Positions 6,690 to 29,175 of a stretch of DNA of 32,109 bases are shown here, in pieces. Position 1 is the stretch's first letter, and each line of letters begins with the position of its first letter. Below the pieces are notes generated by a model. It had not been told where the DNA came from and did not search any database. It saw only the letters and a program-made list of their open reading frames with translations. This DNA comes from Skermanella sp. (GTDB lineage: Bacteria > Pseudomonadota > Alphaproteobacteria > Azospirillales > Azospirillaceae). The stretch covers positions 1-32,109 of the forward strand of contig DASQKT010000384.1 of NCBI GenBank assembly GCA_035630415.1, read 5' to 3'. A program made the translations under genes and the position numbers.

Positions 6690-6707
6690 CCCTTTTCCGC
6701 TCCGGCA

Positions 6708-7724
6708 TCACCTGACCGCCATGCGCTGGTTCTGACGGATCGTAGCACCGACTTCATCGATCCAGTCGACCAGCGCAAGGTTCAGCGTCTCGCTCACATG
6801 TTCGCGCGAGTCCTCCAGGACGGCGCGGACCGCGCGTTCGAAGCTGTCGCGGTTGACGACGGCGTCGAGCTGGGCGAGCACGAGGTCTACGATGGTGAAG
6901 ATCGATTTGGCGGCGATGACGACGAACACGGGACCACCGATCAGGGCCACGGGAATGCCGTAGCTGCCCAGCATCGCCACCACCGCCGAGGCGGAAACGC
7001 TCAACGATGCCGTGGTGGTCATGATCGGCCGCGTGACGCGCGCCGCGACGGCGTCGAACCGGCTGCCCGCCTCATAGGCCAGGGGCGGGATGATCTCCCT
7101 CGGCTCCAGCAGTGGCGGCAGCCCGGCGCAGAGGTCGGGTTTGTTGGCCGGTACGTCGATCTGGCGCAGGCCGGCCCAGGCTTCCCGGTTCAGCTCGAAG
7201 CAGAGCTTGTCGATCCGCCGGTCGGTGGAACGCAGCGCCGCCGCAGCAGCGGCTTCCAGGTCCAGGCGTGCGAGGTCCGGCTGAAGCCGCGCCTCGTAGG
7301 CGCCCAGCACGGTCGTCAGCAGACGCTCTTCGACCCGGTTCTGGACGTTGATGAAATCGCCGGTCGCCACCGACGCGATGCCGACGGCGATCGCTTTAAA
7401 TATCAGGATATAGCTGGTCCACCAGTCGAACACCCAGTCGACATAGTGGTCAGCCCGGCCCACCAACTCGGCATGGACCGGTGCCGCTTCCAGCTCCAGA
7501 TCCCGGAGCGCCGCCGCCCGGATGGCATCCAGGGAGCGCGACAGCAGCAGGTCGAAGTCGCCGGACCGCGCGGTATGCGCTGCAACGGCAGGCGGATCGG
7601 CGGGAACGATCGATCCGGCCGCCCCCGACGCCGGGCCGCTGCCGCCCAGCAGCACCGCCAGGATCATCAGTCCGCGCGCGGCCGTCGTGATGCGTGACCT
7701 TATTCCCCGTGCCTTCATCCCCAT
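6708..7724 (-). CDS. Secreted or membrane-associated hypothetical protein with C-terminal hydrophobic hairpin
   Basis: N-terminal signal; RADHYVDWVFDWWTSY segment; helical middle; hydrophobic C-terminal region then VDLVLAQLDAVVNRDSFE. Alternative start 7718 gives an ATGA overlap with the upstream stop. Confidence 0.75.
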   Translation of the reverse strand: MGMKARGIRSRITTAARGLMILAVLLGGSGPASGAAGSIVPADPPAVAAHTARSGDFDLLLSRSLDAIRAAALRDLELEAAPVHAELVGRADHYVDWVFDWWTSYILIFKAIAVGIASVATGDFINVQNRVEERLLTTVLGAYEARLQPDLARLDLEAAAAAALRSTDRRIDKLCFELNREAWAGLRQIDVPANKPDLCAGLPPLLEPREIIPPLAYEAGSRFDAVAARVTRPIMTTTASLSVSASAVVAMLGSYGIPVALIGGPVFVVIAAKSIFTIVDLVLAQLDAVVNRDSFERAVRAVLEDSREHVSETLNLALVDWIDEVGATIRQNQRMAVR

Positions 7725-8485
7725 CGCAGGATATCCATTATGGTCCAGGCGGAGATGCTCATGTCACCCGACCATGGATGGTTCATCAGGATGGCGAGAT
7801 AGGCGATGGTGACGGCCGCGAGCGACATCATCGTGGACAGCAGCATCTGGATAAACAGCGAGGGGCCGGTGACCAGCGAGGCGAACGCCATCGTCGTCGC
7901 GGTGGCGAAGGCGACGCCCAGCCAGGCGTAGCCCATCAGCGGGTCGGGAATGCTGCGGGCGAGGCGCTTGGCGCGGACATCGACGAGCTGCGCCAGGGTT
8001 TCGCCGGTATTGTCCGCCGCCGCCATCACCGGCGCCGCCGCCGCCGCCATGGTGACGAGCATGTCGTCGAACGCTCCCTGGGTGGCGGGATCGGTCCTGC
8101 CGCCGGCGATGGCGGGCAACTCGCGTTCCACCACCATGCGGGCGTACCGCTCGACCAGGACGCCCAGCCCTTCCGGATCGGCCCGGCGGGCCGTGAAGTG
8201 AAGGCCGGTGAGGAGCCGGCCTTCCAGGTCCAGCAGCGTCCGCAGGTCGTATTGCAGCATGGCTCCATGGACCAGCACGAAGACCAGAAGTCCCGAGAAG
8301 ATCTGGCCCAGGACTTCCAGCTTCAGCCCGGTCAGGCTGACGTCGCGCTCGTCGGGGCCGATCACGTAGGTCGCGACGAGAGCGCCCAGCGTACCGATGA
8401 CGGCGCTGCCTATCACGGCCCACGTGCCCCCCACGGCCATCGGCTGTTCGGCGATCCATCGCGCAAGGCTGGCGAACATTTCCAT
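7715..8485 (-). CDS. DUF4239 (bestrophin-like) membrane protein, copy 3
   Basis: True start MEMFAS at 8485 inside the long track ORF. TM-TM (GQIFSGLLVFVLV), LEG..L, YARMVVERELPAI, VDVRAKRL, two TMs, MNHPWSGDMSIS. Confidence 0.8.
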   Translation of the reverse strand: MEMFASLARWIAEQPMAVGGTWAVIGSAVIGTLGALVATYVIGPDERDVSLTGLKLEVLGQIFSGLLVFVLVHGAMLQYDLRTLLDLEGRLLTGLHFTARRADPEGLGVLVERYARMVVERELPAIAGGRTDPATQGAFDDMLVTMAAAAAPVMAAADNTGETLAQLVDVRAKRLARSIPDPLMGYAWLGVAFATATTMAFASLVTGPSLFIQMLLSTMMSLAAVTIAYLAILMNHPWSGDMSISAWTIMDILRWG

Positions 8486-8490
8486 GGCGG

Positions 8491-9240
8491 TCAGAGTCCC
8501 GGCAGGGCGACGAACTGATGCGGGCTGAGCGGCGTGGTCCCGGCGAACGGGCTGCCCATCGCCCAGGCAAGGTGAAGCATCTGCGCCGTCGTCATCGTCA
8601 GCATCGACGTCGTCACGGCATGGATGAAGACCGATGTCGAGCCCAGCGCCCAATTGAAGGCGATGGAGACGAGGGCCAGCGCACCGACTGCCGTCCACAG
8701 CATCCTGTTGAACGCGTTGCCCGCCGCCACGTCGATGCGCTGGTTTCGGGCCGCGACGGCGGCCACCGCCAACTGGCTGCCCATCCCTGCGGCTAACGGC
8801 GATGACAGGCTTGCCGGCGCATTGTGGAAGGCGCGAAGCACCGCGTCGAACCGCCGCTCGGCGACCGGGCTGTGCGCGCCGGCCGCCATCTCGCGCCACT
8901 CGTCGGCGGCGACCGCCTCGCCATAATCCTTGACCGCCGCCGCGATCCGGCCGTCGCCGTCCAGACCGCCGGCACTGGAGACCATGACCAGCGCACGCAA
9001 CGCCGCCGTTTCCCGAGCCATGGCCGTCGCCGCGGATTCCCGCGTGTCGCTGGCCTGGACCAGGACGAAGGCGGCGAAGCCGGCGAAGACCTGGGCGAAA
9101 TACATGTATTTGACGCCGCCGCCGGGATTGTTGCCGGCAAGTTCCGCGTCGGTCAGGTAGTAGCGGACCACTATCAAACCCGATATCGCCCAGAAAGCCG
9201 CCCCGGCCATCCAAAGGAGGAACTCGGTCGTAAGCGTCAT
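8491..9240 (-). CDS. DUF4239 (bestrophin-like) membrane protein, copy 2
   Basis: AQVFAGFAAFVLVQA, ETAALRAL, DYGEAVAADEWREMAAG, ARNQRI, two TMs, MGSPFAGTTPLSP; the best match to the DUF4239 pattern. Confidence 0.88.
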   Translation of the reverse strand: MTLTTEFLLWMAGAAFWAISGLIVVRYYLTDAELAGNNPGGGVKYMYFAQVFAGFAAFVLVQASDTRESAATAMARETAALRALVMVSSAGGLDGDGRIAAAVKDYGEAVAADEWREMAAGAHSPVAERRFDAVLRAFHNAPASLSSPLAAGMGSQLAVAAVAARNQRIDVAAGNAFNRMLWTAVGALALVSIAFNWALGSTSVFIHAVTTSMLTMTTAQMLHLAWAMGSPFAGTTPLSPHQFVALPGL

Positions 9241-10028
9241 CGGCCCTCCTTGACGGCGCCGTGCTGGGGCGAGGCCAAGCCGGTCAAAGTGGCGGGAACC
9301 GCGACCTTCGCGGTCGGCAGGACCAGCGCCAGTGCTACCGTCGCGGCGATCGCGATCCCAGCCGCATGAAGCCCGTTGAACACCGCGTCGCTGACATGGC
9401 CGCTGGTGCGCAGCGTAGCACCCATCAGCAGGCTCAGGCCCAGCGGCACGATCACGAGACCGGGCGGCAGCGGCAGGCTGTACCGGTTGATCGCGGACAG
9501 CCGCGCCTGCCGGGTCGCCGGCAGCAGTTTAGACAATGTGTCCAGAGTGGACCGGGTCTGCGGGCTGCCGATGCCGCGCTCGACCACGTCCCGGCAGATC
9601 GCCACCAGCAGTTCCAGGGAGACGCCGGCGGCGGCCGAGATCCCGCCGTCGGCTTCGGCGCTCACCACGTCCCCGGCATAGGTGCTCACCGCCCGTTCCA
9701 GCCTCCCAGCCTCATCGGCGGGCAGGCCCGATGCGGCGGCGCGGATGCCGCTGAGATACGAGCTTTCGGCGCGGTAGGCGTGCTCCAGCGCATTCCCGGC
9801 GACCCAGCCGAAGCTGAGCGTCGCCGCGATCAGCCCGATGAACACTTGTTCCAGCCAGCCGAAGGCTGCACCGCTCTGTGCTTCCGAGAACAGCGGCGTC
9901 GGGTCCCCGAGGATGTTGCGCATCAGCAGCACGACGCCGCCCCAGACCACGAAGGCGGTGGCGCCTATCGCGGGAACCCCCGCCGCGAGCAGCCAGGAGG
10001 AGGCGCCGGAAGGTCCGTCAAGGCCCAT
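9237..10028 (-). CDS. DUF4239-like membrane protein, copy 1 (most divergent)
   Basis: EQVFIGLIAATLSFGW, AESSYLSGI, TYAGDVVSAE, ATRQARL, two C-terminal TMs. Start MGLDG at 10028 overlaps the upstream stop (alternative 10082). Confidence 0.68.
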   Translation of the reverse strand: MGLDGPSGASSWLLAAGVPAIGATAFVVWGGVVLLMRNILGDPTPLFSEAQSGAAFGWLEQVFIGLIAATLSFGWVAGNALEHAYRAESSYLSGIRAAASGLPADEAGRLERAVSTYAGDVVSAEADGGISAAAGVSLELLVAICRDVVERGIGSPQTRSTLDTLSKLLPATRQARLSAINRYSLPLPPGLVIVPLGLSLLMGATLRTSGHVSDAVFNGLHAAGIAIAATVALALVLPTAKVAVPATLTGLASPQHGAVKEGR

Positions 10029-10629
10029 GGGCTGCCCTGCCGCCGCCGGGCGCCGGGAGATCGGGAAGTGAATCGGGGACATGGGGCGCCAGCCGAAAGG
10101 TGGCGGTGGGCAGGGGGGACAGCGCTATATCCACCCCGACCGCCTCGAACCTAGGGTCTTCGGAGGCTTCCAGCAAGGCGATCACGACGCGCCGGGACAG
10201 CGTGGCGCGGAGACCGCTGTCTTCGGCGGCCCAGTCGTCCAGGCGGCGGCCGATCCAGGTCCGATCCTCTTCGGCCAATTCCAGCGTGCGTTCCAGGTGG
10301 ACCTTCAATTTCGGCAGGATACCGGATTCGGTGACGACCTCGGTCACCCGGTAGCCGCAGTCGGCAATCAGGCGCCAGAAGATGCTGGCTTCGGGCGAAA
10401 CCGCATCGAGGGCTTCGGTCGGGGACGGCGGCAGCACGAAACCGGCGAAGCGGTCGATCAGGTGGTCGAGCGGCGTGCCGCCGGAGACGTCGCCGGAGAG
10501 TACTTCGGCGGAAAGCGCATCGGACGAAAGACCGTTGCCGGCCTGGGCTCCCGGACAATGGCCTGCCCCGGCCGCGATCAGGCTCGCGGCGATCATGCCC
10601 TGGATCAGACGCCCGGACGGTGCCCGCAT
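10018..10629 (-). CDS. Secreted hypothetical protein
   Basis: Start MRAPSG overlaps the upstream TGA (TGATG); signal peptide; GYRVTEVVTESGILPKLKV motif. Confidence 0.75.
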   Translation of the reverse strand: MRAPSGRLIQGMIAASLIAAGAGHCPGAQAGNGLSSDALSAEVLSGDVSGGTPLDHLIDRFAGFVLPPSPTEALDAVSPEASIFWRLIADCGYRVTEVVTESGILPKLKVHLERTLELAEEDRTWIGRRLDDWAAEDSGLRATLSRRVVIALLEASEDPRFEAVGVDIALSPLPTATFRLAPHVPDSLPDLPAPGGGRAAHGP

Positions 10630-11057
10630 CAATCGTCCACCTTGATGCGGTTGTACCATCGCCGGCTGCCCAGCGCCGACCGCTTGGGCGTCAGCGCCAG
10701 CCCGTTCATCAGCGACTTGACGCGCTTCTCGGCCCGCGCGGTGTCCTTCGGACGGTTGGTCAGCGAAGCGTAGGTGGCCACCGCTTCTTCGAAGCGTTTC
10801 CGGGGAACCTTGCCCTTCGGCGTGTTGTTGAGAAGCGCCTGGACGAGTTCGACCGCCTTGCTTTCCAGCACGATGCCCTGTTCGCGCGCGGCCTGCCGGA
10901 TCGTGCCATGGGCTTCGTCGGGGTCGAGGTCGAGGTCCACTACCGCCGTGCGCAGGGCCTCGCGCTCGCGTTCCGCGGTCAGCAGAGATCCGTCGTCGGC
11001 GAAGAACGGCACCATGGCCTTGAATTTTCGGCGTTGTTCGCTGGGGGAGTCGGCCAT
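10629..11057 (-). CDS. Cytoplasmic helical hypothetical protein, 142 aa, basic C-terminus
   Basis: True start MADSPSEQ at 11057 with an AGGA RBS; DDGSLLTAEREREAL..LDLDPDEAHGTIRQAAREQGIVLE; ends RRWYNRIKVDD. Confidence 0.75.
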   Translation of the reverse strand: MADSPSEQRRKFKAMVPFFADDGSLLTAEREREALRTAVVDLDLDPDEAHGTIRQAAREQGIVLESKAVELVQALLNNTPKGKVPRKRFEEAVATYASLTNRPKDTARAEKRVKSLMNGLALTPKRSALGSRRWYNRIKVDD

Positions 11058-11104
11058 CGACGGGTCCTGTAGTTTCCTGGAGCTGGTCAAGCTGGTGGTG
11101 CGTG

Positions 11105-12085
11105 TCACGGTCTGGCGAACCAGCGGGGAGCGATCTCGTGCGCGATGCCCTGAGCGGTCTGCCCGGCCTTGCCGCTCGCCTGTCCGAACAGGCCCGCCGC
11201 TTGGGAGACGGAGACTGACCAGAGGTCGCCGATCCTGTCCATCAGCGACCGGGGAGCGCCCGACAGGCGTTTCTCGTTTGCGGCGATCGCGATGGCTTCG
11301 GAGATGCCGGGCGACGCGGCATCGGAAACCGCGATGCCCAGATCGGTGCAGAGCGCCGCATCGGAGAGCGCCGCATCGGATAGCTTTGTATCGCCGCCCT
11401 TGGTGTCCTCGACGGTCACCTGGCGGCGCTGGTAGCCAAGGCCGGCGGCGTCGGCCGACCGCCAGAGCGCTTCGTCGTTCAGCGGGACGATCCGGACCAG
11501 ACCGTCGATCACGGCGTTGGTGACGACGTCGCCCGGCACGATCTCCAGGCTGGAGAGCAGGACCGCCGAAACCTGTTGGTTGAGCAGGCGCGCGACCGCG
11601 CGCATACCGCCGCGCGACTCGGTCCTGACCGACGCGAGCGGCGGGTGGACGGTCGAAAGCACCGCCCAACTGCCGGCGGTGAGCGATCCGGCGGCACCGA
11701 TGTCGATGGCCCCGCCGGCGGCGGTCGGCAGGGCGGATGCGCCGGTCGCGGCCTCCATCGGCACGAGCAGGACGAAGCAGGCGCGGCGGAGCGGGAAATA
11801 CTCCAGGTCGGCGATAACCGGCGACCGCCGAGCCGCGTTCCGGAAGGTGTCGCCGTGAAGCAGGGCGGCGGCGGCCTGCTTCCGCTCCAGCGCATCGAGC
11901 GGGTCGGCGCCGGGCGCCGGCTTCTCGACGACGACAGGCTGGCCGGGCGGCAAGGCGCCCGGCACGGCATCGGCGATCGCTTCCACCACGGAGCCGGGTG
12001 GTCCGCCGCCCAGCATGGTGACCGCAGCTCCCGCCGGCAGGGGAGACACCGCCGACAGGGCCGCGGCCAGGACGCGGAACGGCAT
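11105..12085 (-). CDS. Divergent TAXI-family (TRAP-associated) solute-binding protein
   Basis: Signal peptide; VTMLGGGPPGSV, GADPLDAL, IDIGAAGSLTAGSW, VRIVPLND follow the TAXI layout. ATG overlaps the TPR stop. Confidence 0.6.
   Translation of the reverse strand: MPFRVLAAALSAVSPLPAGAAVTMLGGGPPGSVVEAIADAVPGALPPGQPVVVEKPAPGADPLDALERKQAAAALLHGDTFRNAARRSPVIADLEYFPLRRACFVLLVPMEAATGASALPTAAGGAIDIGAAGSLTAGSWAVLSTVHPPLASVRTESRGGMRAVARLLNQQVSAVLLSSLEIVPGDVVTNAVIDGLVRIVPLNDEALWRSADAAGLGYQRRQVTVEDTKGGDTKLSDAALSDAALCTDLGIAVSDAASPGISEAIAIAANEKRLSGAPRSLMDRIGDLWSVSVSQAAGLFGQASGKAGQTAQGIAHEIAPRWFARP
11351..11380. repeat. Perfect in-frame 15-bp tandem duplication (GAGCGCCGCATCGGA x2)
   Basis: Read directly; encodes SDAAL-SDAAL. 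Confidence 0.85.
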
Positions 12086-13140
12086 CAAGTCTGCCTCGGC
12101 TTCGTCGCTTTTTCGAGGTCGCCGCTGATCGACCGGTCGGTGGGAGCCAGCCGGAGCGCCCGGCGCAGGGCGGCCGATGCCTCGTCGGTCCGTCCGGACG
12201 CCATCAGCAGACGGCCCAGCCGCGCGTGGAGTGCTGGGTTGTCGGGCGCCAGTTCGGTTCCGACGGAGAGTTCCGCGATGGCGTCCTCCGGTCTGCCGAG
12301 CGCCTCGTAGGCGGTCGCCCGCTCTTCGCGGATCAGCACGGCCTGGGGTTCGAGCCGGGCGGCGATCGCCAGCATGTCCAGGGCTTCGATAGGGCGTCCG
12401 AGCCGGTTCAGCGATTGGCCGATATTGAGGTAGGGAAGGGACAATGTCGGATCGAGTTCGGTCGCCCGGCCGAAGACCGTGATCGCTTCCTCGTACTTCT
12501 TCTGAAGGAACAGCGTCCGTCCCCAGAGATTGAAGATCAGCGGCTGCTCCGCCTCCGGCATCGCGGTGAAGCAGTACTCGATCATCTCGTAGGTCTTGGC
12601 GAAGTCGGGCGACGCGGTCTTCTGCTCGGCGGCCCGGACATACAGGGCCGCGATGTAGGGATCGACCGTCTTGACCGTCTCGAAACCGGCCTGCTTCAGC
12701 AGCAGGGGAATTTCGGACCGCGATCCCGCGAACTGGTTGCTGCGGACCTTGCCGGCCCGGTCGGTGATCCTCATGCGCAGCATGACGTGGTCGTCGTCGA
12801 TGTCGTACAACTCGCCGGAAATGGTCATCTTGACGACGCCGACATATTTTCTGGCGGCGTTGACCAGCACCTGGATCTCGAAATACTCGCCGATCTCGGC
12901 AAGCGATTCGTCCTTTTCCTCGTTGCCGAGGTCGATGCTGCGTATCCGCGACCCTGCGCCCATCCGGACCGCCCGGATTTCGTCGGTCAATTGGCGGGTG
13001 AGGACGCGCGGGCTATAGCCCTGCTCCTGTGCCCATTTGGGTGAAGAGATCGGATCGAACACGATGCTGTCGTACCCGGTATAAAGACCGAGGCCGAAGA
13101 TCGACAGGATCGCGATTATGGGAAACGTGAGGAAGTCCAT
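12085..13140 (-). CDS. Membrane-anchored tetratricopeptide-repeat protein
   Basis: N-terminal TM, an alpha/beta domain (FDPISSP..GYSPRVLTRQL), then about 4 TPRs (WGRTLF..KYEEAI..F.RATELDP; YLNIGQSL..LGRPIEAL; LHARLGRLL..GRTDEA..ALRRALRLAP). Confidence 0.9.
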   Translation of the reverse strand: MDFLTFPIIAILSIFGLGLYTGYDSIVFDPISSPKWAQEQGYSPRVLTRQLTDEIRAVRMGAGSRIRSIDLGNEEKDESLAEIGEYFEIQVLVNAARKYVGVVKMTISGELYDIDDDHVMLRMRITDRAGKVRSNQFAGSRSEIPLLLKQAGFETVKTVDPYIAALYVRAAEQKTASPDFAKTYEMIEYCFTAMPEAEQPLIFNLWGRTLFLQKKYEEAITVFGRATELDPTLSLPYLNIGQSLNRLGRPIEALDMLAIAARLEPQAVLIREERATAYEALGRPEDAIAELSVGTELAPDNPALHARLGRLLMASGRTDEASAALRRALRLAPTDRSISGDLEKATKPRQT

Positions 13141-13342
13141 GCGGTCACCTGATCAGATCGGGTCTTGATCAACTCGGATAAATGCGGATTGCGTTCGATG
13201 CGGGCGCCCGTGACAGTTACCCGCAAAGAAGTAAATATTTCGACCTATGACGAGCGAATGGCGGGCAGGGACTTGCGTCCCGGCGCATCCCCTCACAGGC
13301 GGGCATACCCGAACGATTTACCCGGAAGACTTGATTGAGCTG

Positions 13343-13380
13343 TGCGGGGAGCGCGGCGCTTGCGGCCTGCTCTCCCCGCA
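13343..13380. terminator. Hairpin just downstream of the Gly-zipper gene
   Basis: TGCGGGGAG...CTCCCCGCA perfect 9-bp outer stem, 10 nt past the stop at 13391; no clear U-tract on the minus strand. Confidence 0.4.
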
Positions 13381-13390
13381 TTTGGTCCGG

Positions 13391-13846
13391 TCAGGGCATG
13401 ACGCGGTATGCGACCGACGTCGACAGCTTGCCGGAACGTACCGGAGCCACCGACTCGGGCGAAGTCAGCCAATCCGCGACCAGCGCGCCGACGAGCGAGC
13501 TGGACACCGCGTAGACGCGGCTGACCGCGACTGCGCCTTCGCTGGCGGAGAGGGCGCCGGTGGCCGCACCCGCGCCGCCGATCAGGGGCAGGGCGGACAG
13601 GCCGCCGGTCGCCAGATTGAAGGCGACGACGCCGCCCAGGGCGCCGAGCCCGAGCGCCAGCAGGCGGCCGTTGGCGGCTGCCGCCTCGGGCGCCGGGTTG
13701 ATCGGGCCGGGCAGCGGCGCCGGGATGGGGTTTTCCAGCGACGGGGCCAGCATCGGCGGCGCGGAACCGCCGCTCTGCGCCAGTGCGGGCTGGGCGAGGC
13801 CGATCGCGAGCGTCAGGGCGGCGGCGGTGAACGCACGTGTTTTCAT
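13391..13846 (-). CDS. Secreted Gly/Ala-rich membrane-inserting (glycine-zipper-like) protein, 151 aa
   Basis: AAGGA RBS; MKTRAF..AQPALA signal; Pro-rich linker; LLALGLGALGGVVAFNLATGG and SRVYAVSSSLVGALVADWL hydrophobic segments. Confidence 0.8.
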   Translation of the reverse strand: MKTRAFTAAALTLAIGLAQPALAQSGGSAPPMLAPSLENPIPAPLPGPINPAPEAAAANGRLLALGLGALGGVVAFNLATGGLSALPLIGGAGAATGALSASEGAVAVSRVYAVSSSLVGALVADWLTSPESVAPVRSGKLSTSVAYRVMP

Positions 13847-13881
13847 GTCATCGTTCCTTGGGCCTGTTGCGGGAAAGGTCG

Positions 13882-15288
13882 TCACTCGACCAACGGGTTG
13901 AGAGTGAGGGAGAGGAGGGCGGCCGACGCATCGTCGACGGCGAGCCGGGCATTGGCTTCCAGAAGCCAGCGGCGGGCGACGATGCTGGCCGGTGCTCCCA
14001 TGCGGGAGATCAGTTCGACGGCGCCCTTCAGGTCGCTCTCGGCGAGACGCCGGGCGGTCGCTTCGAGTGTCTGCTGCTCCGGCGAGGTGGTGCGCAGAGA
14101 CTCGGCGCCGGCCGCTTCCGCGACCGACTCGAGCCACGAGCCGACGCGTTCGCCGATACCGCGCTGACTGGTTGCCGCGACCGCCGTCAGGATGCGCGGC
14201 GCGACCAGGGCATTGTAGCTTTCCCGCAGTTCGCTGAGCGTCGCGACGCCGGTCCCCGCGCTCTGGCCGAGTACGGCGACAGTCTCGGCGAAAGCCGGAT
14301 TGCCGGCGCTGAGCCGCCGGATCACGTCGATTTCCCGTTCGAACGGCCGGGACGTCTGAAGCTTCGCGCCCAGATGCTGGACGGCAAGCGCCATCCGCAT
14401 AGCCTTGGAACGGACCAGATCGGCCTGCCGAAGCTCCTCTAACGTGGCGGCGGCGCTGGCTTGGCCGGCTTGCGCGGCCTCGTTCAGCCGGCCCGCCAGG
14501 GCGGCCAGTTCCGCCTGCGCCGTGGCAAGTTCGGTCCGGCTGGCGGCGAGGGCCGCTTCCACCTGCGCCAGACGCCTGTCCTGTTCCGCCGTCGTAGCAC
14601 CGAAGGTCGACACGAGGGCGGCGCCGCGTTCGTTGAACTGCTCGAGAGAAGCGGCGGCGTTGATGCGGGCTTCACCCGCGTCGAGTCGCGCCGCCATCGC
14701 ATCGAGCCTTGCCGTCAGCTCGCTAAGGCGGCTGTCGGTCGAGGACCCGGCGCGCTCCAGCCGGTCTATGCGCAGGGCGGCGACGTTGACGTTGCCGCCG
14801 ACGGCTTCGATCGCGTCCACCCTGTCCGCTACCGTCCCGACCCGGCGCTCGGCGTCGTCGGCCCGCGCCGCGAGTGCGGCGACGCCGCCGTCTCCCAACA
14901 GGAAGGCGTATTGGGGAGGAACGGAAACGTGCTTTTCGACCCAAGGCTTGGCAATCGGCCCGGAAAGAGCAACCAGGGATACGGCGATGGCTAATCCCGA
15001 CAGCAGCAGGGGTGCTCGACTCGAGCGCCGGGGCCGCTGGGCCGATGCGGCATCGTTCGAACGGTGCCGTGCTGTGAATTCCGGTTGGGGAGCGCTGTAT
15101 GAAATCTCTTCGCGCAGCCGCGCGGATGCTGGCGGATGTTCGGGCGGATCGGCGACAATTCCGATATCCGCTGGCCCGATATCCGCTGGGCCAGCGGGGG
15201 AGCCTGTGTCTGTATCGGTCCCGCCGGACAATCCGGGCGGGGGGCGCTCCAACGTATCGCCGGAAGAAATCTGATCCGAAGTCTTCAT
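13882..15288 (-). CDS. Mic60/mitofilin-family (COG4223) inner-membrane protein, paralog A
   Basis: GAGGA RBS before ATG 15288; disordered N-terminus, single TM, long coiled coil, then LAVQHL..L...RPFEREI...GVATLSELR...DLKGAV...RWLLEANARLAVD mitofilin motif. Confidence 0.88.
   Translation of the reverse strand: MKTSDQISSGDTLERPPPGLSGGTDTDTGSPAGPADIGPADIGIVADPPEHPPASARLREEISYSAPQPEFTARHRSNDAASAQRPRRSSRAPLLLSGLAIAVSLVALSGPIAKPWVEKHVSVPPQYAFLLGDGGVAALAARADDAERRVGTVADRVDAIEAVGGNVNVAALRIDRLERAGSSTDSRLSELTARLDAMAARLDAGEARINAAASLEQFNERGAALVSTFGATTAEQDRRLAQVEAALAASRTELATAQAELAALAGRLNEAAQAGQASAAATLEELRQADLVRSKAMRMALAVQHLGAKLQTSRPFEREIDVIRRLSAGNPAFAETVAVLGQSAGTGVATLSELRESYNALVAPRILTAVAATSQRGIGERVGSWLESVAEAAGAESLRTTSPEQQTLEATARRLAESDLKGAVELISRMGAPASIVARRWLLEANARLAVDDASAALLSLTLNPLVE
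15161..15190. repeat. 15-bp in-frame tandem duplication (14/15 identical)
   Basis: CCGATATCCGCTGGC / CCGATATCCGCTGGG; encodes PADIG-PADIG in the disordered N-terminus. Confidence 0.8.
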
Positions 15289-15380
15289 TAAATCCTCAGG
15301 CCGGCGGTCGCGGCGGCGTTGCGAAACCATCTTCATCATATTATCTCTAATTCTTTTGAATTACACTAGATGTATAAATC

Positions 15381-15403
15381 GCTTACCCTTAAGAGAGGTA
15401 AGC
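15381..15403. promoter_or_regulatory. Inverted repeat GCTTACC-N9-GGTAAGC in the AT-rich divergent promoter region
   Basis: Read directly between the two Mic60-like genes. Confidence 0.5.
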
Positions 15404-15621
15404 TGCCGGCGCTGCCGAAACCAAAACGATCTCAGATGCGCAACAATCTGTCGGAGAAGATACATGGATATATCAGCGGGATGTTTGGTCCGTCTCCATG
15501 ACTTGGCCGCCGGTTCTGAACAGGTCATTCCGGTCGGAGCCGGCTGACCTGGACGACATCCGATCCGCATCGTTTCCGGGGCGCCAGGATCTGCAACAGG
15601 CTGTGAGTTATGGAGAGAGCG

Positions 15622-16518
15622 ATGACCGATGAACCCGACGACACCAAGCCCTCGCGCGAGCCGGCCATGAGTGCGCCCGCCAGATCGGGCGGCGGCTCGA
15701 CGGTGGCCGTCTTCCTGTCCTTTATCGCTCTTGCCGCGTCGGTCGGCTCCACCGGCTGGATGCTGACCCGCGTCCAGCCCGCCGTCCGCGACTCGGCCGC
15801 AGCCGCATCCGCGCTCAACGCTTCGGTAAAGGCGGCGACCGCCGCGTCGGGTGCGGCGGCGGCATCCGTCGAGAAGCTGTCCGGCGAAGTCGCGGCGCTG
15901 CGGACCGAGCTGACCGGCCTGCCGGTTCGCGCCGACGCGCTCGACAAGCGGATCTCCCAGGTCGAGGCGAGCCTCGGCGCGCTGGCGCGGGTTGCAGCCG
16001 CCGACATGGCGGTCCGCTCCATGACGACCTCGGCGTCGGGCGCCGTCCTGCCCCAGAACGAGGTGAGCCGACTCGTGACGCTGGGGTCCAGCATCCCGGA
16101 GGCGTTGGCAGCCGCTTTGGAGCTTGGCGCGTCGATGCCGGGCGGCGCCATCTCGCGCCAGAGCCTCAAAGTCGATCTGAGCCGAATCGCCGACCGAATC
16201 GAGGAGACGTCTTCGCCGCATCCGCAGACAACCGTCCATACCGTGCAGACCTTCATCAACCGCACCGTGACGGATGTCGGCGAGACGCTGGGTCTGCCGC
16301 TCAACCAGCAAAGCCCGGCCGCGTCGTTGCGCGACGCCTACCGGTCCGTCGACTCCGATCTGGCCTCGGCTATTCGTATCGCCCAATCCAGCGACCTTCG
16401 GCTCCAGCCGGCGGTGGCCGACTGGATGGTGCGCGCCAAGGCACGACTCGCCTTCGAGCAGTCCATGCGCAAGCTGACCGATGCGCTGGCCGTGGTGCGG
16501 CAGGCGGACAAGACCTGA
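15622..16518 (+). CDS. Divergent Mic60/mitofilin-like protein, paralog B
   Basis: GGAGAG RBS; single TM (VAVFLSFIALAASVGSTGWML), coiled coil, C-terminal SDLASAI...AVADWMVRAKARLAFEQSMRKL matching the mitofilin end motif; the middle is degenerate. Confidence 0.68.
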   Translation: MTDEPDDTKPSREPAMSAPARSGGGSTVAVFLSFIALAASVGSTGWMLTRVQPAVRDSAAAASALNASVKAATAASGAAAASVEKLSGEVAALRTELTGLPVRADALDKRISQVEASLGALARVAAADMAVRSMTTSASGAVLPQNEVSRLVTLGSSIPEALAAALELGASMPGGAISRQSLKVDLSRIADRIEETSSPHPQTTVHTVQTFINRTVTDVGETLGLPLNQQSPAASLRDAYRSVDSDLASAIRIAQSSDLRLQPAVADWMVRAKARLAFEQSMRKLTDALAVVRQADKT

Positions 16519-17180
16519 TGCGCCGGGGCCGTATCCGCTTCGCCGCGCTTGCGGCCCTGGCCCTCGCCGTCCCTCCGGCAGCCTTGACTTCCCGGACCGC
16601 CGAAGCGCGGGACGCGGTCCAGCTGCCGCTTGCGGCGGGGCCGCAGTCCTTACGGACGAACGGCAGGGTCAATATCCGGGCGGAGCCGTCCAGATCGGCC
16701 CCGGTGGTCGGGACGGTGGCGCCCGGAACGCTGCTCGAGTCGCCGGGCATCGTGACCGGCCAGCCCTGGGTGCCGGTGTCGCGTGACGGGCGGTTGTTCG
16801 GCTATGTCTTCGCCGAACTGGTCTCGCCGGTCGCACCGGTACCGAAGGCGGTCGAGGTTCCGGCGACCGATTCGGCAATTGATCCGGCTGGCGGTCCGGC
16901 AGCGGAGAAGATGGCGGCCCCTCCGCCGGCCCTCGGCGCGATCGACGATCGCCTGCGCGTGGTGGAGGAGGCGCTGAGCGGTATGCGCACCGATCTCGAC
17001 CGTCAGGCGCAGTTGTCGCGCGAGGGTTTCGAGCGCACCGGACGGATGCTTTCCAATATCCAGGCGCGGCTGCCGGAGCCGGAAGAGCCGGCGGTCGTCC
17101 GCCTTCATCCGCCGCCGACGCGGCTGGACGTGGCGATCCAGAGCGTTCGCGGTCTGGTAGCGCGCCTGATCGGTGACTGA
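16518..17180 (+). CDS. Secreted SH3b-domain protein with C-terminal coiled coil
   Basis: Signal peptide; VNIRAEPSRSAPVVGTV..G....WVPV...GRLFGYVFAELV; TGATG coupling to paralog B. Confidence 0.85.
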   Translation: MRRGRIRFAALAALALAVPPAALTSRTAEARDAVQLPLAAGPQSLRTNGRVNIRAEPSRSAPVVGTVAPGTLLESPGIVTGQPWVPVSRDGRLFGYVFAELVSPVAPVPKAVEVPATDSAIDPAGGPAAEKMAAPPPALGAIDDRLRVVEEALSGMRTDLDRQAQLSREGFERTGRMLSNIQARLPEPEEPAVVRLHPPPTRLDVAIQSVRGLVARLIGD

Positions 17181-17186
17181 GCGCGT

Positions 17187-17783
17187 ATGACGGAATGGCT
17201 TTCGGCACTGTTTCCGGTCCTGCTGACGGTGGCCGCCCTGCTGCTGCCCGTCGCGGTGCTCAGCGTTTCGGACGGGCTGCTGCACCTGATTGCCCCCCAG
17301 ACGTTCTTCCGCATCCCGGCGCTGTCGGCCCTGCCGAAGCTGGCGGGACTGGCGCTGGGTATCGGCGCGCTATACGATCGGGATGACGGCGCCGCCTACG
17401 AAATGACCCTGCTGTTCGACGCGTCGAGCTTCTGGAACATGACGGCGCTGGAGTTCCTGACCACTCGGGCCGATCCGTCCGGCTATCGCCTGATCGATCT
17501 TTCCGCCGGCGCCTTCGTCGGTCTGCCGGACCCGCTACTCGGCAGTCTCATGCTCGCGTCCGGCTGCATGCTGGTGCTGGCCGGCATAGTGGCCCTGATT
17601 ACGGCGCGCGGGGTCGAGCTTGGGCGCATCTTCCTGGCGATCCCGGCCGTGGCGCTGTCCACGGCGTTCCTGACGGTCTATCTGGTCTCCCTGATCCTGT
17701 GGGCGGCTCACATGCTCAATTTTTGGGTGTTCCTGCTGGCCGCTGCGATCTACCAGAAGCGGCGTTACTCTTCACATATTTGA
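17187..17783 (+). CDS. Integral membrane hypothetical protein (about 4-5 TM)
   Basis: Several hydrophobic segments; 6 nt after the SH3 gene. Confidence 0.8.
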   Translation: MTEWLSALFPVLLTVAALLLPVAVLSVSDGLLHLIAPQTFFRIPALSALPKLAGLALGIGALYDRDDGAAYEMTLLFDASSFWNMTALEFLTTRADPSGYRLIDLSAGAFVGLPDPLLGSLMLASGCMLVLAGIVALITARGVELGRIFLAIPAVALSTAFLTVYLVSLILWAAHMLNFWVFLLAAAIYQKRRYSSHI

Positions 17784-17805
17784 ATATTCTCGGGATCAGC
17801 GGCTA

Positions 17806-18252
17806 TCAGCGGCTCTTGTAGCCCGAGATATAGCGTTTCTGGCTCTGCCCGGTGAGTCGGGTCACCATCGATGCCCAGACGATCCCTCCGGTGGTCAGCA
17901 ACCCGATAGATACGGGAAGCCACCAGGACAGCACCGTCATCCGGTGGTCCGGTGGAGACGCTTCGACGATCATCCAGGTCAGGACAGCGGCAATGATCAC
18001 CGCCACCGCGATGCCGCCCCGGCCCAGTGCCGCAAGCCCGGTCAGGACGCCCCAGCCGGCCAGCACGAGAGCGAAGACCAGGAACGCGACCTTGAGGGCG
18101 AAGCTCCAGCCGTCGTCCGTGGCGAGCCAGCCGAGCAGGGAATAGCCCGACGGGTTCCAGGCCGCCAGCGTCCCGGTTTCGACCAGCAGCAGGCGGACGA
18201 TCAGCCCGCCGGGATCGATGGTCGCGTGATGGTGCCCGCCGCCGCTGCTCAC
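17806..18252 (-). CDS. DUF6524-like membrane protein (divergent copy)
   Basis: WNPSGYSLLGWL, ALKV, AALGRGG, RLTGQ; clear paralog of 18743-19153; GTG start. Confidence 0.7.
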   Translation of the reverse strand: MSSGGGHHHATIDPGGLIVRLLLVETGTLAAWNPSGYSLLGWLATDDGWSFALKVAFLVFALVLAGWGVLTGLAALGRGGIAVAVIIAAVLTWMIVEASPPDHRMTVLSWWLPVSIGLLTTGGIVWASMVTRLTGQSQKRYISGYKSR

Positions 18253-18354
18253 GGCCGGTATCCCCGATCTTTCGTATTAGCAGGCTGCTCTCCGGACCGC
18301 ATCACGCTATGATCTGGAGAACGGTTGGCCGGAGAATGATTGGCATGTCGAGGC

Positions 18355-18741
18355 ATGGGAGCTGCTGTGGACAGGGGTGAAGGGACTGTTCTGGTCGCAC
18401 AGGGGTTCGGCGGCTACCTCGAACTCGAGGGCAACCGGCTGCGCATCGTGCGGGGCGGATGGTTCGGCTATCTCGTCACCCTGTTCGGCCTGGAGGGAGG
18501 ATTCGTCGAGCGGACCGTGCGGGTCGATCAGATATCCAGCATCGAACTCGACGTGCCCGTGATGTTCTTCCGCTATATCCGGTTCTCCTATCCCGGCAGC
18601 CCGGCCATGACCGGCAACAACATCGCCGACATGCTGGCCGAGAACTCGGTCATCATGAGTCTTGTGGACAACCGCCCGTTCTTCCGCATCGTCGAGCGCA
18701 TCGAGGAAATGATGGACCATGCCGGCGCTCCCCGAGCCTGA
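18355..18741 (+). CDS. DUF4429-like (bacterial PH-fold-like) protein
   Basis: QGFGGYLELEGNRLRIVRGG...ERTVRVDQISSIEL...YIRFSYPG...ENSVIM pattern. Confidence 0.65.
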   Translation: MGAAVDRGEGTVLVAQGFGGYLELEGNRLRIVRGGWFGYLVTLFGLEGGFVERTVRVDQISSIELDVPVMFFRYIRFSYPGSPAMTGNNIADMLAENSVIMSLVDNRPFFRIVERIEEMMDHAGAPRA

Positions 18742-18742
18742 C

Positions 18743-19153
18743 TTACCGGAGCGTGACATCGTTCGAGTCGACCTGACCGGTGACGCGCAATGTAAGGCTG
18801 GACCATGAAACGCCGAGCGCCAAAATGCTGGCGACCGCGACCAGCGCCACCGTGAGGTAGGCGCCGTTCGACAGGTTGCTGAGCAGGCCGAAGTCGATCA
18901 TCGTCCAGGTCGCGGCGATCAACAGGCCGGCCGTGGCGAGGATGCCGCGCAGGCCCAGCGACCGCACCGTCGCGAGAAAGAACGTCGCAACGATGCTGCC
19001 GAGCAGAAGCCCGGCCAGGATCTTGAGCGACCATGGCTCCCCGGTGCCGCCCATGACCCAGTGGATATAGGAATAGCCCGACGGGTTGAACGTGGCGAAG
19101 ACGATGAACATCGAGATCAGCCACCGTACGATGATTCCGGGATAGCTGAACAT
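18743..19153 (-). CDS. DUF6524-family membrane protein
   Basis: RWLISMFIVFATFNPSGYSYIHWV, ATVRSLGLRG, LALGVSWS...RVTGQVDSNDV. Confidence 0.82.
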   Translation of the reverse strand: MFSYPGIIVRWLISMFIVFATFNPSGYSYIHWVMGGTGEPWSLKILAGLLLGSIVATFFLATVRSLGLRGILATAGLLIAATWTMIDFGLLSNLSNGAYLTVALVAVASILALGVSWSSLTLRVTGQVDSNDVTLR

Positions 19154-19171
19154 CGCGCGCCCAGCCCTGTC

Positions 19172-20026
19172 TTATTGGGCGAACATGCGGGACTCGATGT
19201 CGAGTCGCTCGTCGCACGACAGCTTCTGTAGCTGCATGAAGACGCTGCGTTCCGCCGCATAGGCATCCAGCGCCTGCTGCTCGAGAGACCGCAGTTCGTC
19301 CCTGACCTCAATGTACTGCAACGTGACGTCGACGACCCGGTAGGGCAGGATGAAGGCGCCGAGCACCGCGTATTGCGCCATGATGGTCAGGGCACGTCCG
19401 GTAGCGTCGCGGACCGATGACGGTCCCAGCACCGGAAGCACGATATAGGGACCGGGTCCGATGCCGTAGTGGCAGAAGACCTCGTCCAGGGTCGCCTTGC
19501 GCGCCGCAAGACCGTATTCCGCCGCCTGATCGTAGACGCCGCCCAGGCCGACCGTGGTGTTGATGGCGAACCGCGCCGCCGTGGTTTCCGCGGCACTCCA
19601 GTCGCCCTTGAGCACGTGTCCGGCCAGCCAGACCGGCTCCCGCAGGTTCGAGAAGACATTGGACATTCCCATCCGGACCGGGGCGGACGTCGCCTCGACA
19701 TAGGCATCGGATACCGGTTCCAGCACGAGGCGGCGGACCTCCTGGTTCAATTGGTGAGCCAGCCGGTTCAACTCCTCTGCCGGATCGTTCTCCGAGTCCT
19801 CCGGAGCTTCGCCGGAGACCGCCGGATCGACCGGCGCCGCCGTCCGCGTGACGGGGGGTCTGTCGTCGCTATACGGATTTACCGGCTTGGCCCGGTTCAT
19901 CGACAGGGCTTCTTCGAAGTCGCGGTCGTCAAGAAAGCGTCCGGCATGACTTTGCGCCATGCTCAGGGTCAGAAAAAGGGCTGCCGTGACGGCAGCATGC
20001 GCACCTTGTCTGAATAACTGCCGCAC
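19172..20026 (-). CDS. mlaA: MlaA/VacJ-family protein lacking a lipobox Cys
   Basis: NDPAEELNR, NVFSNLREP, RFAINTTVGLGGVYDQA, GPGPYIVLPVLGPSSVRD, DAYAAERSVFMQ. Confidence 0.88.
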   Translation of the reverse strand: MRQLFRQGAHAAVTAALFLTLSMAQSHAGRFLDDRDFEEALSMNRAKPVNPYSDDRPPVTRTAAPVDPAVSGEAPEDSENDPAEELNRLAHQLNQEVRRLVLEPVSDAYVEATSAPVRMGMSNVFSNLREPVWLAGHVLKGDWSAAETTAARFAINTTVGLGGVYDQAAEYGLAARKATLDEVFCHYGIGPGPYIVLPVLGPSSVRDATGRALTIMAQYAVLGAFILPYRVVDVTLQYIEVRDELRSLEQQALDAYAAERSVFMQLQKLSCDERLDIESRMFAQ

Positions 20027-20053
20027 GCTTCCTCCAAGCTGGTCGTTGAAGAT

Positions 20054-20075
20054 TTTTAAACGATAACCTTTAAAA
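20054..20075. promoter_or_regulatory. AT-rich inverted repeat TTTTAAA-N8-TTTAAAA upstream of mlaA
   Basis: Read directly in the mlaA/pstS-like divergent intergenic region. Confidence 0.3.
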
Positions 20076-20291
20076 CTTTACGAACCAAGCGCCGCATGTC
20101 CGCCGAGTGCCTTCGGACGAGTCGCTGGCCGCCGGTATCCGCCTTAACTCGCTGATTATGTGATGAACTCGCCGGTTACCGGGAGTCGAATGACCTTTGA
20201 ACTACATTTGTATTTAACCCTTTCGGATGGATAGTCCCAGATAGCGCCGAAACGGCCCCTTCGCAGGAGAGCCGCTCATGAAGGGCCAGCC

Positions 20292-21353
20292 ATGACCATC
20301 GTCGGAAGAAGGCCGCGTCTGCTCGCCGGTATCGCATTGCTCGTCGCGGCCTGCCTGCCGGCGCAGGCGGCGGATATCGGGCGGCAGATGGCCGAGAAAC
20401 CCCGCGACCTGATCGCCATCGCGGCTTCTCCGCCGATGGCCGCCGTGGCGGAAGCCGTATCGGCCGCCTTCGCCGCGCGCTTCGAGACTGCGGGACCCCA
20501 GGTGACCGTAACCTCCACCCAATCCGCCTTCGCTGGCTTCTGCCGCGAGGCGGCATCGCTGCCCGACATGGTGATCAGCAACCGCCGCATGTCCCACGCC
20601 GAACTGGCACGGTGCCGCCGCGCCGACGTGGGCGACATCGTCGAGATCCCGATCGGGTTCGAGACCGCCATATTCGTCACGCGCCGGGGCGGGCCTGCAC
20701 TCGACCTGACGCTGGATCAGATCTTCGATCTTCTTGCGGCGGGCGGTTCGCGGCCGATTCGCTGGGCAGATCAGGGTATCGGCCGGTTCGGCGAGAAAGT
20801 CCGCATCCTCCTGCCGCCGCAAACCGACCCCGCCTTCGGCATCGTGCGCGAACAGGTGCTGATGACGGTCTGCCGCGAGCGTCCCGGACTGGGGGACCGG
20901 CCCAAGGCTGCCGACCGGCTGGCGGCTTGCGGCGCCGTCCGCGACGATGCCGAGGCTGGGGCCGGCGTCGTGATGGAGACGGCGGAGCGGTCGATCCCGA
21001 AGAACCTGGGAGCCGGGGAGATCGGGCTGGTCGGTAATTCCGTGTTTCAGCGCAGTGCCGAGGACCTCCAGCCGGTCCTGATCGACGGGCAGGGACCGTC
21101 GGTCCTGGCGGTCGTTTCCGGCGACTACGCGGCGGCGCGTCCGGTCTTCGTCTATGCCAAGGCGGCGCAAATGCGCAAGGGGCGGGGCGGCGGCAGGGTC
21201 AGGGGCCTGCGCGATCTGGCCGATTTCATCGCGGGCGACGACGTCACCGGCCAGAACGGTGTCCTGGGCCACCTGGGGCTGGTCATGCTGCCGTCGGAGC
21301 GGCGGGTCACGGTGCGCATGCGGACGATGGCGCTGGTGCCCTTCGACCGCTGA
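20292..21353 (+). CDS. PstS-like periplasmic binding protein (degenerate phosphate site)
   Basis: Alphaproteobacterial PstS layout: FAGFC, PDMVISNRRMSHAELARC, IVEIPIGFE, LTLDQIFDLLA, LLPP, AVRDD, GDYAAARPVFVYAK, GVLGHLGLV. Confidence 0.8.
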   Translation: MTIVGRRPRLLAGIALLVAACLPAQAADIGRQMAEKPRDLIAIAASPPMAAVAEAVSAAFAARFETAGPQVTVTSTQSAFAGFCREAASLPDMVISNRRMSHAELARCRRADVGDIVEIPIGFETAIFVTRRGGPALDLTLDQIFDLLAAGGSRPIRWADQGIGRFGEKVRILLPPQTDPAFGIVREQVLMTVCRERPGLGDRPKAADRLAACGAVRDDAEAGAGVVMETAERSIPKNLGAGEIGLVGNSVFQRSAEDLQPVLIDGQGPSVLAVVSGDYAAARPVFVYAKAAQMRKGRGGGRVRGLRDLADFIAGDDVTGQNGVLGHLGLVMLPSERRVTVRMRTMALVPFDR

Positions 21354-21422
21354 ATCTCGATCGTGTTAATCTCTTTGATGGAAATTAGATCGTATTCGTC
21401 ATAATCTGAATTCAATTTGCAT

Positions 21423-22217
21423 ATGGAGGTACGTTTGCGTTTGGCATTAAGGGTAACCGCCAGCATCGGGCTCATACTCGCTCTGTCAATCGCAACGTCC
21501 GTCGTCGTCAGCCGCCATGCCTTCGTGCATATCCTGCTGGACCTGACGGAATCGCGGATCTTCGCCCTGGCCGACGATATCGGCGACGTGTTCGCTGCGA
21601 CCGTCCGGCTGGGTCTGCCGCTCGATCAGATCGGCAACGGTTCCGAAATCCTCGACGGCGCATTGCCGCTCGACCCTCAGATCGTGGCGCTCGTGGTCGT
21701 CGGCGCCGAGGGAGAACTGCTCCATAAGGCCGGCAAGTCGTTCGACTGGCTGAGCGCCGGCGGCATACGCGGCGAAGGCGATCCGAAGAAGGGCAGCCGG
21801 CGCAAGGTGGTCGATGCAGGCGACATGCTGGTCGTCTGGACCGCCATTCTCGACCCGCTGGGCCGGACGACCGGGCATATCGGCATCGCGGCTTCCAGCA
21901 GCTACCGGAACATGCTGGTCCGCAACAGTTTCAACGAAGTGCTTACCCTGTCGGGCATCGTACTGGTGATCGCCACCCTGGTGACCGCCCTGGGAGCGAT
22001 CGTCGCCTGCCGGGGAATTTCCCTGATACTGCGGCGGATCGGCCAGATGGCGGACAATCCGGAGACGGCGGCCGGTGATCCTCTCGGCGGGATCGGCGCC
22101 GCCGCGATGGGCAAGCTGGACTGGATCAACGGGGAACTGGCCGCGATCGAAGCGGCTGCCGCCACCGTTACCAGTGCCGGCGCTGGCGCCGTCTCGCGTC
22201 CGGAGCGCGTGACATGA
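21423..22217 (+). CDS. TM-periplasmic sensor domain-TM protein without an output domain
   Basis: Two TMs flank a Cache-like segment (VRLGLPLDQI..DPQIVALVVVGAEGELL). Alternative TTG start at 21435 after GGAGG. Confidence 0.75.
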   Translation: MEVRLRLALRVTASIGLILALSIATSVVVSRHAFVHILLDLTESRIFALADDIGDVFAATVRLGLPLDQIGNGSEILDGALPLDPQIVALVVVGAEGELLHKAGKSFDWLSAGGIRGEGDPKKGSRRKVVDAGDMLVVWTAILDPLGRTTGHIGIAASSSYRNMLVRNSFNEVLTLSGIVLVIATLVTALGAIVACRGISLILRRIGQMADNPETAAGDPLGGIGAAAMGKLDWINGELAAIEAAAATVTSAGAGAVSRPERVT

Positions 22218-25206: not shown

Positions 25207-25207
25207 G

Positions 25208-27166: not shown

Positions 27167-27297
27167 GTCGGCATATCCCGGTGTGTATACTTTCCGGCAT
27201 CACCATAGCGAGAAAACGGCGTTTGAGGAGTGCTTTGAAGGCTCATAGCCTCTGGTCGCACCGTCGCTTCGACAGAGTCACCGGAGAAAATCGCCCC

Positions 27298-28362: not shown

Positions 28363-28380
28363 AGATCAGAAGCCAAAGAC

Positions 28381-29172: not shown

Positions 29173-29175
29173 AGC

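Follow-up and report, generated by a model that had tools for sequence, protein, structure and literature searches.

The window analysed here is a complete contig (DASQKT010000384.1, C384; 32,109 nucleotides) of the Skermanella sp. assembly GCA_035630415.1 (G000; 5.48 Mb, 79% complete). It contains a cluster of 18 genes (6708-21353), distributed over at least six transcription units and arranged around two genes for Mic60-like proteins. Sequence comparisons indicate that the cluster is a real, rare and unnamed membrane gene set. A sequence-only reading had described about 16 largely coupled envelope genes around two head-to-head Mic60-like genes, and this description was partly confirmed. The open reading frames (ORFs) are present in the ORF list, the Mic60-like genes form a divergent pair with 270 bp between them, and no recognizable metabolic enzyme is encoded; the gene count was too low, and two labels (TAXI-like for g07, DUF4429-like for g15) had no library match. 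Ten genes point leftwards from Mic60A, most of them overlapping or almost abutting (gaps of -10, 2, -4, -65, -1, 47 and -4 bp, then 250 and 35 bp), so that this arm is tightly coupled. To the right, Mic60B, an SH3b gene and g13 form a coupled rightward trio, followed by a DUF6524 gene (minus strand), g15 (plus), a second DUF6524 gene and an MlaA-like gene (both minus) and a PstS-like gene (plus). The right side is thus not a single operon; because the strands are mixed, it consists of several units. Promoter and terminator scans gave a signal no better than chance.

Mic60A (g10; 13882-15339, minus strand) has one transmembrane segment, a coiled coil and a mitofilin-type C-terminal domain. Mic60B (g11; 15610-16518, plus strand) is a short, highly divergent mitofilin-domain protein. 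Each has a single hydrophobic segment plus coiled-coil matches, consistent with an N-terminal anchor. No Mitofilin match was obtained in a Pfam scan of whole Mic60A; its C-terminal 185 aa aligned to PF09731 (positions 432-607) with E = 3e-4, under the cut-off, and a profile of Mic60A with 13 relatives detected the Mic60-Mic19 structure 7pv1 (E = 0.005). There are also relatives of Mic60A that bear PF09731. Mic60B had no Pfam match. It was matched across the full domain by a hidden Markov model (HMM) of 26 other Mic60-like domains (E = 7e-5; best reversed decoy 0.04), and hhalign gave 90.6% with E = 1.3e-6. Both therefore stand as divergent mitofilin-domain proteins, recognized through remote homology. 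A genome-wide search of G000 for the Mitofilin family returned nothing, and with a custom Mic60 HMM Mic60A was the sole match, so that this assembly, which is 79% complete, yielded no canonical Mic60. In the same-genus genome G006 a canonical Mic60 locus lies separately, about 21 kb from Mic60A.

The available part of one study (10.1101/2022.06.14.496148) describes Mic60 as shaping internal membranes of bacteria and places the canonical gene in a hemC-hemD-mic60-orf52 arrangement. The cluster proteins resemble canonical Mic60 in the transmembrane segment, coiled coil and C-terminal mitofilin-type domain. They differ in that each cluster has two or three shorter, divergent paralogues, and the pair in the window is flanked by g09 and g12, with neither hemD nor orf52 beside it. 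Compact versions of the cluster, with a glycine zipper, an MlaA-like gene, g06 and three Mic60-like genes, were observed at G820:C1:259152-267611, G828:C43:194763-202889 and G863:C26:49783-58187. In G820 and G828 a P-loop protein of about 500 aa, which we take to be dynamin- or EHD-like, lies between the second and third Mic60-like genes.

Conservation of the neighbourhood was followed with g06 (10629-11057, minus strand), which encodes a 142-aa all-helical soluble protein and served as the cluster marker. All 18 genes, together with four more (g19-g22) that extend the syntenic block past the limit first noted, to 26230, are syntenic in two of seven same-genus genomes (G006 and G007), the genomes used for synteny with the window. 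The g06 gene was found in 35 of 130 genomes of the family (Azospirillaceae) and in none of 400 phylum-wide genome draws. It is 95% identical in Skermanella aerolata and 89% in S. stibiiresistens (named records L023 and L024); one further genus of the family, g7, is inferred from named matches to be Azospirillum. A search with DUF6524 led to ten fetched genomes, of which four have the cluster (three from other alphaproteobacterial families and one within the family). DUF6524 alone was rejected as a marker because the remaining six have it as a single-copy gene without the cluster. Altogether the cluster spans four families and two metagenome contigs, with its gene order shuffled between lineages. 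This supports the proposal of a dedicated envelope or membrane system with a conserved neighbourhood.

Neighbours were counted within 20 kb of g06 at 39 loci: 34 of the 35 family genomes (G865, whose locus is only 2 kb, was omitted), three genomes of other families and two metagenome contigs. The counts are lower bounds, since many loci are covered on one side or end at contig ends, and they are non-independent because many loci are kin. The most frequent partners are g13 (31 loci) and DUF6524 (30), followed by MlaA-like (25), Mic60-like (22) and glycine-zipper (18) genes, h431 and tetratricopeptide repeat (TPR) genes (17 each), an ATPase-MlaE fusion (ABC-MlaE; 16), an RND pump (13), SH3 (12), g05 (11), g07 (8), g15 (7), g01 (6), ParA (5), PstS-like (4) and bestrophin (3). 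Both g13 and DUF6524 remain with g06 in several loci that are without Mla or Mic60 genes. The core gene g13 (17187-17783, plus strand; identified by alignment) encodes an unnamed multi-pass membrane protein. The other core genes in the window are the DUF6524 membrane protein genes g14 (17806-18252, minus; E = 4e-18) and g16 (18743-19153, minus; E = 8.7e-38).

Between g01 and dctP, G006 has four extra genes (about 4 kb), namely h431, the ATPase-MlaE fusion and a pair of glycine zippers. In G000 a clean junction near window position 6695-6702 takes their place, and no copy was found elsewhere in the assembly. G007 is also without them at this locus, and what is presumably a transposase ORF adjoins its g01. 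A literature search on DUF6524, DUF4239 clusters and Mic60-paralogue clusters found no description of this gene set, in keeping with the earlier remark that the combination is not a named system; its coverage was that of open papers, with subscription papers and supplements outside it. None of the terms looked for occur in a preprint on carbonate in methanotrophs (10.64898/2025.12.07.689555).

The remaining genes of the left arm, all on the minus strand, encode mainly exported and membrane proteins. The product of g01 (6708-7724) is an exported or membrane protein with no Pfam or NCBIfam match; its relatives occur in loci that include G424, L126 and L127. Three genes match Bestrophin-like PF14023 (formerly DUF4239): g02 (7715-8485; E = 2.7e-18) and g03 (8491-9240; E = 1.5e-24) score above the cut-off, whereas the divergent g04 (9237-10082; E = 7.5e-7) falls below it with 29.4 against 32 bits. 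The likely exported g05 (10018-10629) is a member of a reduced core and has a modelled beta-beta-alpha-alpha-beta-beta domain; its fold gave only a weak match to GTP cyclohydrolase I (E = 0.009, TM 0.16). Beyond g06 lie the exported protein g07 (11105-12088) and the N-terminally anchored TPR protein g08 (12085-13140; TPR_2, E = 1.8e-20). The product of g09 (13391-13846), next to Mic60A, is a glycine-zipper hairpin with a signal-like N-terminus and 10 G/AxxxG-type units; the window copy had no Pfam match, and up to three copies of such genes were detected per locus in other genomes. In G021 (C219:85797-87478) several short ORFs in a row, all very rich in glycine and sharing a C-terminal motif, were observed about 5 kb from g06; they may encode peptide precursors or form a family of structural repeats.

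To the right of Mic60B, g12 (16518-17180, plus) encodes an exported protein with SH3b and coiled-coil regions (SH3_3, E = 1.2e-8), and g15 (18340-18741, plus) an unnamed 133-aa protein. The MlaA-family gene g17 (19172-20026, minus; PF04333, E = 2e-49) is followed by g18 (20292-21353, plus) for a PstS-like predicted periplasmic binding protein (PF12849, E = 8e-12; PDB 9jwy, E = 3e-11; TIGR02136 match under the cut-off). The labels TPR, SH3b, DUF6524 (twice), MlaA and PstS-like from the sequence-only reading were all recovered with Pfam, as TPR, SH3_3, DUF6524, MlaA and PBP_like_2. An accessory cassette follows on the plus strand (g19-g22, 21417-26230; assigned with Pfam), consisting of a protein with two transmembrane segments, a HAMP-MFS fusion, a formyltransferase-like protein and an ABC substrate-binding protein. 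It adjoins the cluster in G846 and is found in G397 without the formyltransferase. The window flanks (405-2350 and 26240-32109) are ordinary. The left end has genes which we take to be nuoD- and nuoC-like, and the right part a LysR regulator with an operon of ABC transporter, SDR and dihydroorotase-like genes that is syntenic in G006. Beside the cluster of G036, a 1156-aa fusion of periplasmic-binding, MscS-beta and cNMP-binding domains was observed (L022:13113-19694). It adjoins a large MFS gene, and a relative of its MscS-cNMP part lies on G000 contig C737.

A profile search with g06 returned 252 relatives at 50% clustering, and the best 150 were examined. Among these, 22 are longer than 200 aa, and 13 carry an iota- or beta-carbonic-anhydrase-type domain, its motifs intact, as a fusion. 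A C-terminal CaMKII-AD/SnoaL domain is present in 10 of the best 150, with invariant Thr and Tyr and a final H/Q-HSS motif (one reads QHSS). According to the accessible text of PMC8425729, Thr, Tyr and an HHSS-type ending are the signature of iota-carbonic anhydrase (CA). All ten domains thus carry this signature (CaMKII-AD/NTF2 fold, Thr, Tyr, (H)HHSS) and are putative enzymes; the top PDB matches of their profile were 3h51 (E = 5e-31) and the iota-CA 7c5x (E = 5e-11). In three others of the best 150 (P0195, P0229 and P0271) an N-terminal beta-CA-type domain with CxDxR...HxxC zinc ligands was found, with Pfam scores under or near the cut-off. Iota- and beta-CA are two unrelated enzymes catalysing one reaction. 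Here, unlike the CAs described so far in the part of that source available (PMC8425729), the domains are fused to a g06 domain, in the iota case inside the cluster of other organisms, and g06 of the window has no enzyme domain.

One metagenome scan yielded two full iota fusions (L126 and L127), and both loci were retrieved. In both, the fusion is a second g06 copy within the same cluster, beside ABC-MlaE and DUF6524, and the loci also hold two Mic60-like genes, g13, g05, g15, a g01-like gene, glycine zippers, ParA and a CDF transporter. As the two loci resemble each other, they count as roughly one event. In a quick tree of low resolution (143 columns), the CA fusions cluster together (SH-aLRT 93) inside a group that contains the window g06 (SH-aLRT 87), and the TIR-fused and planctomycete copies are placed elsewhere. 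The g06 domain is widespread and has no name; it is presumably an adaptor, and its Atlas cluster has 2473 members. No clear match to a known fold emerged. Foldseek gave none at E 0.001; in a wide fold search the best match was Tic110 (Z 6.2), with a TerB-like match at 5.1, over about 60 residues, and the Atlas hints (<0.9) agree with these in direction. Outside the cluster the domain was seen fused to TIR or to a partner that we presume to be TerD-like (no Pfam match), or free in Planctomycetes (P0266, P0231, P0272 and P0227).

The Mla-type genes also depart from their namesakes. MlaA had been invoked as a mover of outer-membrane phospholipids, and the family assignment holds; however, none of 25 cluster MlaA-like proteins has a lipobox in a motif scan, so that the ordinary outer-membrane Mla role is doubtful. 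A second MlaA of G000, on contig C290, has a lipobox-like cysteine. The ABC-MlaE fusion (MlaE domain, E = 1.7e-6) is absent from the window locus, and its partner h431 had no MlaD or MCE match. Thus the cluster shares with the MlaFEDB-MlaC-MlaA system an MlaA-family protein and, in part of the loci, an ATPase-MlaE fusion, and differs from it in these three respects.

Transport genes accompany the cluster variably, including metal-efflux, Zn/Mn and phosphate genes, as does ParA. The one RND pump scanned is of CusA/CzcA type and above the cut-off. Parts of a Zn/Mn ABC transporter were seen in G846 and in G424, the latter also having a Na/Pi symporter and two PstS-like genes. Bestrophins pass bicarbonate in algae. 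For g02-g04 no PDB sequence match was found, and these proteins are putative channels. One genus, g9, has one Bestrophin-like gene at each of four loci (L128, L130, L133 and L134), where it adjoins what we take to be a fumarate hydratase gene, with a presumed pyruvate carboxylase gene nearby in three of the four; PF14023 is present in 8/8 g9 genomes and alpha-CA in 7/8. These genes are a possible second bicarbonate-channel lead, independent of g06.

The cluster was compared with two other known systems. Magnetosome islands contain a TPR protein, small glycine-rich membrane proteins and a cation transporter. Like the present cluster, they are organelle-type gene blocks with a Mic60 paralogue, as far as the available text goes (10.1101/2022.06.14.496148). 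Unlike them, the window has no mam/mms match above the cut-off among its 30 proteins, and mam core genes were not encountered. The resemblance of g08 to MamA does not go beyond that of any TPR protein (42 against 200 bits), most cluster carriers are without MamA, and G000 has no MamA match at E 1e-25. Calcyanin (ccyA), of carbonate-forming cyanobacteria, has three tandem GlyZip motifs of about 50 aa with a central Gly-Pro (PMC8890360). The cluster shares with it long glycine-zipper hairpins and inorganic-carbon or cation neighbours, a likeness of architecture. It differs in having separate single-zipper genes with signal-like N-termini in place of a triple repeat within one protein; g09 has one zipper and no central Gly-Pro, which is absent from 8 of 10 copies checked. 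The cluster is, by these sequence comparisons, not a canonical Mic60 locus, a magnetosome island or a calcyanin system, and its MlaA-like proteins do not look like lipoproteins. By analogy, it would work most like an organelle gene island.

Based on these data, we suggest that the cluster is a conserved, reshuffled membrane system that may build an inner-membrane compartment loaded with bicarbonate or carbonate and divalent cations, a reading to which we assign a probability of about 0.35. It is proposed because g06 relatives are fused to CA-type domains, and we infer functions here from gene content, homology and co-occurrence. Bending and tethering of the membrane would fall to the Mic60 paralogues and to the TPR, SH3b and MlaA-like proteins (the last without a lipobox), and lipid would come from the MlaE-type ABC that fuller versions possess. 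The products of g13, DUF6524, the glycine-zipper genes and g05 could be the membrane set of the compartment itself. The soluble g06 product would serve for docking, as an adaptor that in some lineages brings a CA along by fusion. Interchangeable modules might feed cations (CusA/CzcA efflux, CDF or Zn/Mn uptake) and anions (bestrophin-like, PstS-like or Na/Pi proteins), and ParA could position the compartment. The version in the window may be a reduced form, since it keeps the bestrophin trio and is without the ABC-MlaE pair, RND pump, ParA and any CA. The interpretation offered in the sequence-only reading is thus partly supported: a conserved system stands, and the idea of an inclusion or biomineral compartment gains from the CA-type fusions to a core gene inside the cluster, but three parts come out weaker, namely the roles given to bestrophins and MlaA and a link to photosynthetic membranes.

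A narrower and more doubtful version of this reading is that the cluster encodes an alphaproteobacterial organelle not described before. In a membrane vesicle shaped by Mic60 and positioned by ParA, g06-docked CA and cation and anion transporters would precipitate amorphous carbonate of calcium or another metal. Magnetotactic Azospirillaceae form lipid-bounded amorphous calcium carbonate without ccyA, and the accessible part of the report gives the determinants as not known, both for these bacteria and for membrane-bounded carbonate inclusions in Pseudomonadota generally (PMC11773610). Among family genomes with a MamA-like gene, a reduced core, with g06 and an adjoining g05, was found in three of five (G873, G014 and G018), which may or may not be carbonate formers; G018 additionally has g13 and two DUF6524 genes.

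Several observations weigh against a carbonate compartment. In all five of these genomes the MamA-like gene scores below the curated cut-off. Two of them, G871 and G875, both rated 100% complete, had no g06 or DUF6524 match in a search that had no positive control. No Mic60 paralogue or MlaA gene was found near g06 in the MamA-like-positive genomes, where two of three contigs end close by. For Skermanella and Azospirillum, a literature search brought up no account of carbonate inclusions. The window itself is without a CA gene, G000 gave a match to neither of the two fusion-type CAs, and no iota-type domain was found in G006, G007, G397, G424 or G069. A CA was detected in only 4 of the 39 loci, two of which had been chosen for having one. 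In G015 and G874 an alpha-CA gene is located near g06, at distances of about 2 kb and about 16 kb, respectively; a correlation of alpha-CA with g06 was rejected, as in g7 the enzyme is present in 2/69 genomes and g06 in 23/69. The g06 domain is promiscuous, with fusions to TIR (two), HEAT, TPR and others, and free copies in Planctomycetes. No calcium transporter was recognized in any locus. The bestrophin trio is confined to the genus of the window (3/39 loci; 0/36 outside it), and elsewhere Bestrophin-like genes lie away from g06. Bestrophins were therefore rejected as core members, and the proposal that the cluster supplies ion channels through them is weaker than first put, the trio being a genus-only add-on.

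The main rival is an envelope lipid-traffic or contact-site module in which Mic60 would bridge membranes and the MlaA-like and MlaE-type ABC proteins would move lipid or another hydrophobic cargo, with the ion and CA genes as local add-ons. We consider it a genuine possibility, and it comes close to the compartment reading because Mla-type genes are far commoner than CAs: the locus counts of MlaA-like, Mic60-like and ABC-MlaE genes given above are far above that of any CA. Canonical Mic60 binds BamA, according to the part of the source available (10.1101/2022.06.14.496148), which would suit such contacts. Nevertheless, the missing lipobox and the lack of an MlaD/MCE match in h431 do not fit a conventional lipid pathway, the commonest partners of g06 are kept in several loci without Mla or Mic60, and two independent CA fusions would be left unexplained. 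These fusions would suit a complex in the membrane that handles CO2, bicarbonate or pH by uptake or buffering, with neither mineral nor separate compartment, as would the bestrophin-like genes. That explanation is unlikely, however: it has no need of several Mic60 paralogues or ParA, and no RuBisCO link was seen (16/35 g06-positive against 40/95 g06-negative family genomes). An acidocalcisome-like store of phosphate, or of polyphosphate and metal, on the same membrane scaffold appears similarly improbable. It could account for g18, the phosphate genes of G424 and the metal transporters, but PstS-like genes were found in 4 and Na/Pi in 1 of the 39 loci, no polyphosphate kinase was noticed in them, and the CA fusions would again have no explanation.

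Distribution largely refutes an accessory system for photosynthetic intracytoplasmic membranes, which we regard as very improbable. G000, G006 and G007 possess reaction-centre genes, and canonical Mic60 is described as shaping such membranes in the available part of its report (10.1101/2022.06.14.496148). Reaction-centre genes were found in only 5 of 35 g06 genomes, however, 20 of 25 phototrophs are without g06, and g7 has none in 69 genomes though g06 is present in 23. A link to photosynthetic membranes thus has no support. Reaction centre and RuBisCO were both rejected as correlates of g06, and from these counts the cluster is therefore tied neither to photosynthetic membranes nor to the Calvin cycle. 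A chance pile-up of unrelated envelope genes is scarcely credible. The mixed strands on the right and the mostly local occurrence of the bestrophin trio and the PstS-like gene would agree with it; for the core it is refuted by the same rare families being found, reshuffled, in four families and two metagenome contigs.

If the organelle reading is true, the cluster would contain the genes so far missing for carbonate inclusions outside the cyanobacteria; the ability to form them would then be expected of cultured Skermanella from soil and of roughly one third of the species of Azospirillum. With candidate genes in culturable relatives (L023, L024 and Azospirillum), the carbonate question becomes testable. 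Even if lipid traffic proves to be the function, the cluster places Mic60 paralogues with a set of conserved unknown membrane proteins in non-photosynthetic, non-magnetic bacteria, and this association bears on the origin of the crista-shaping machinery.

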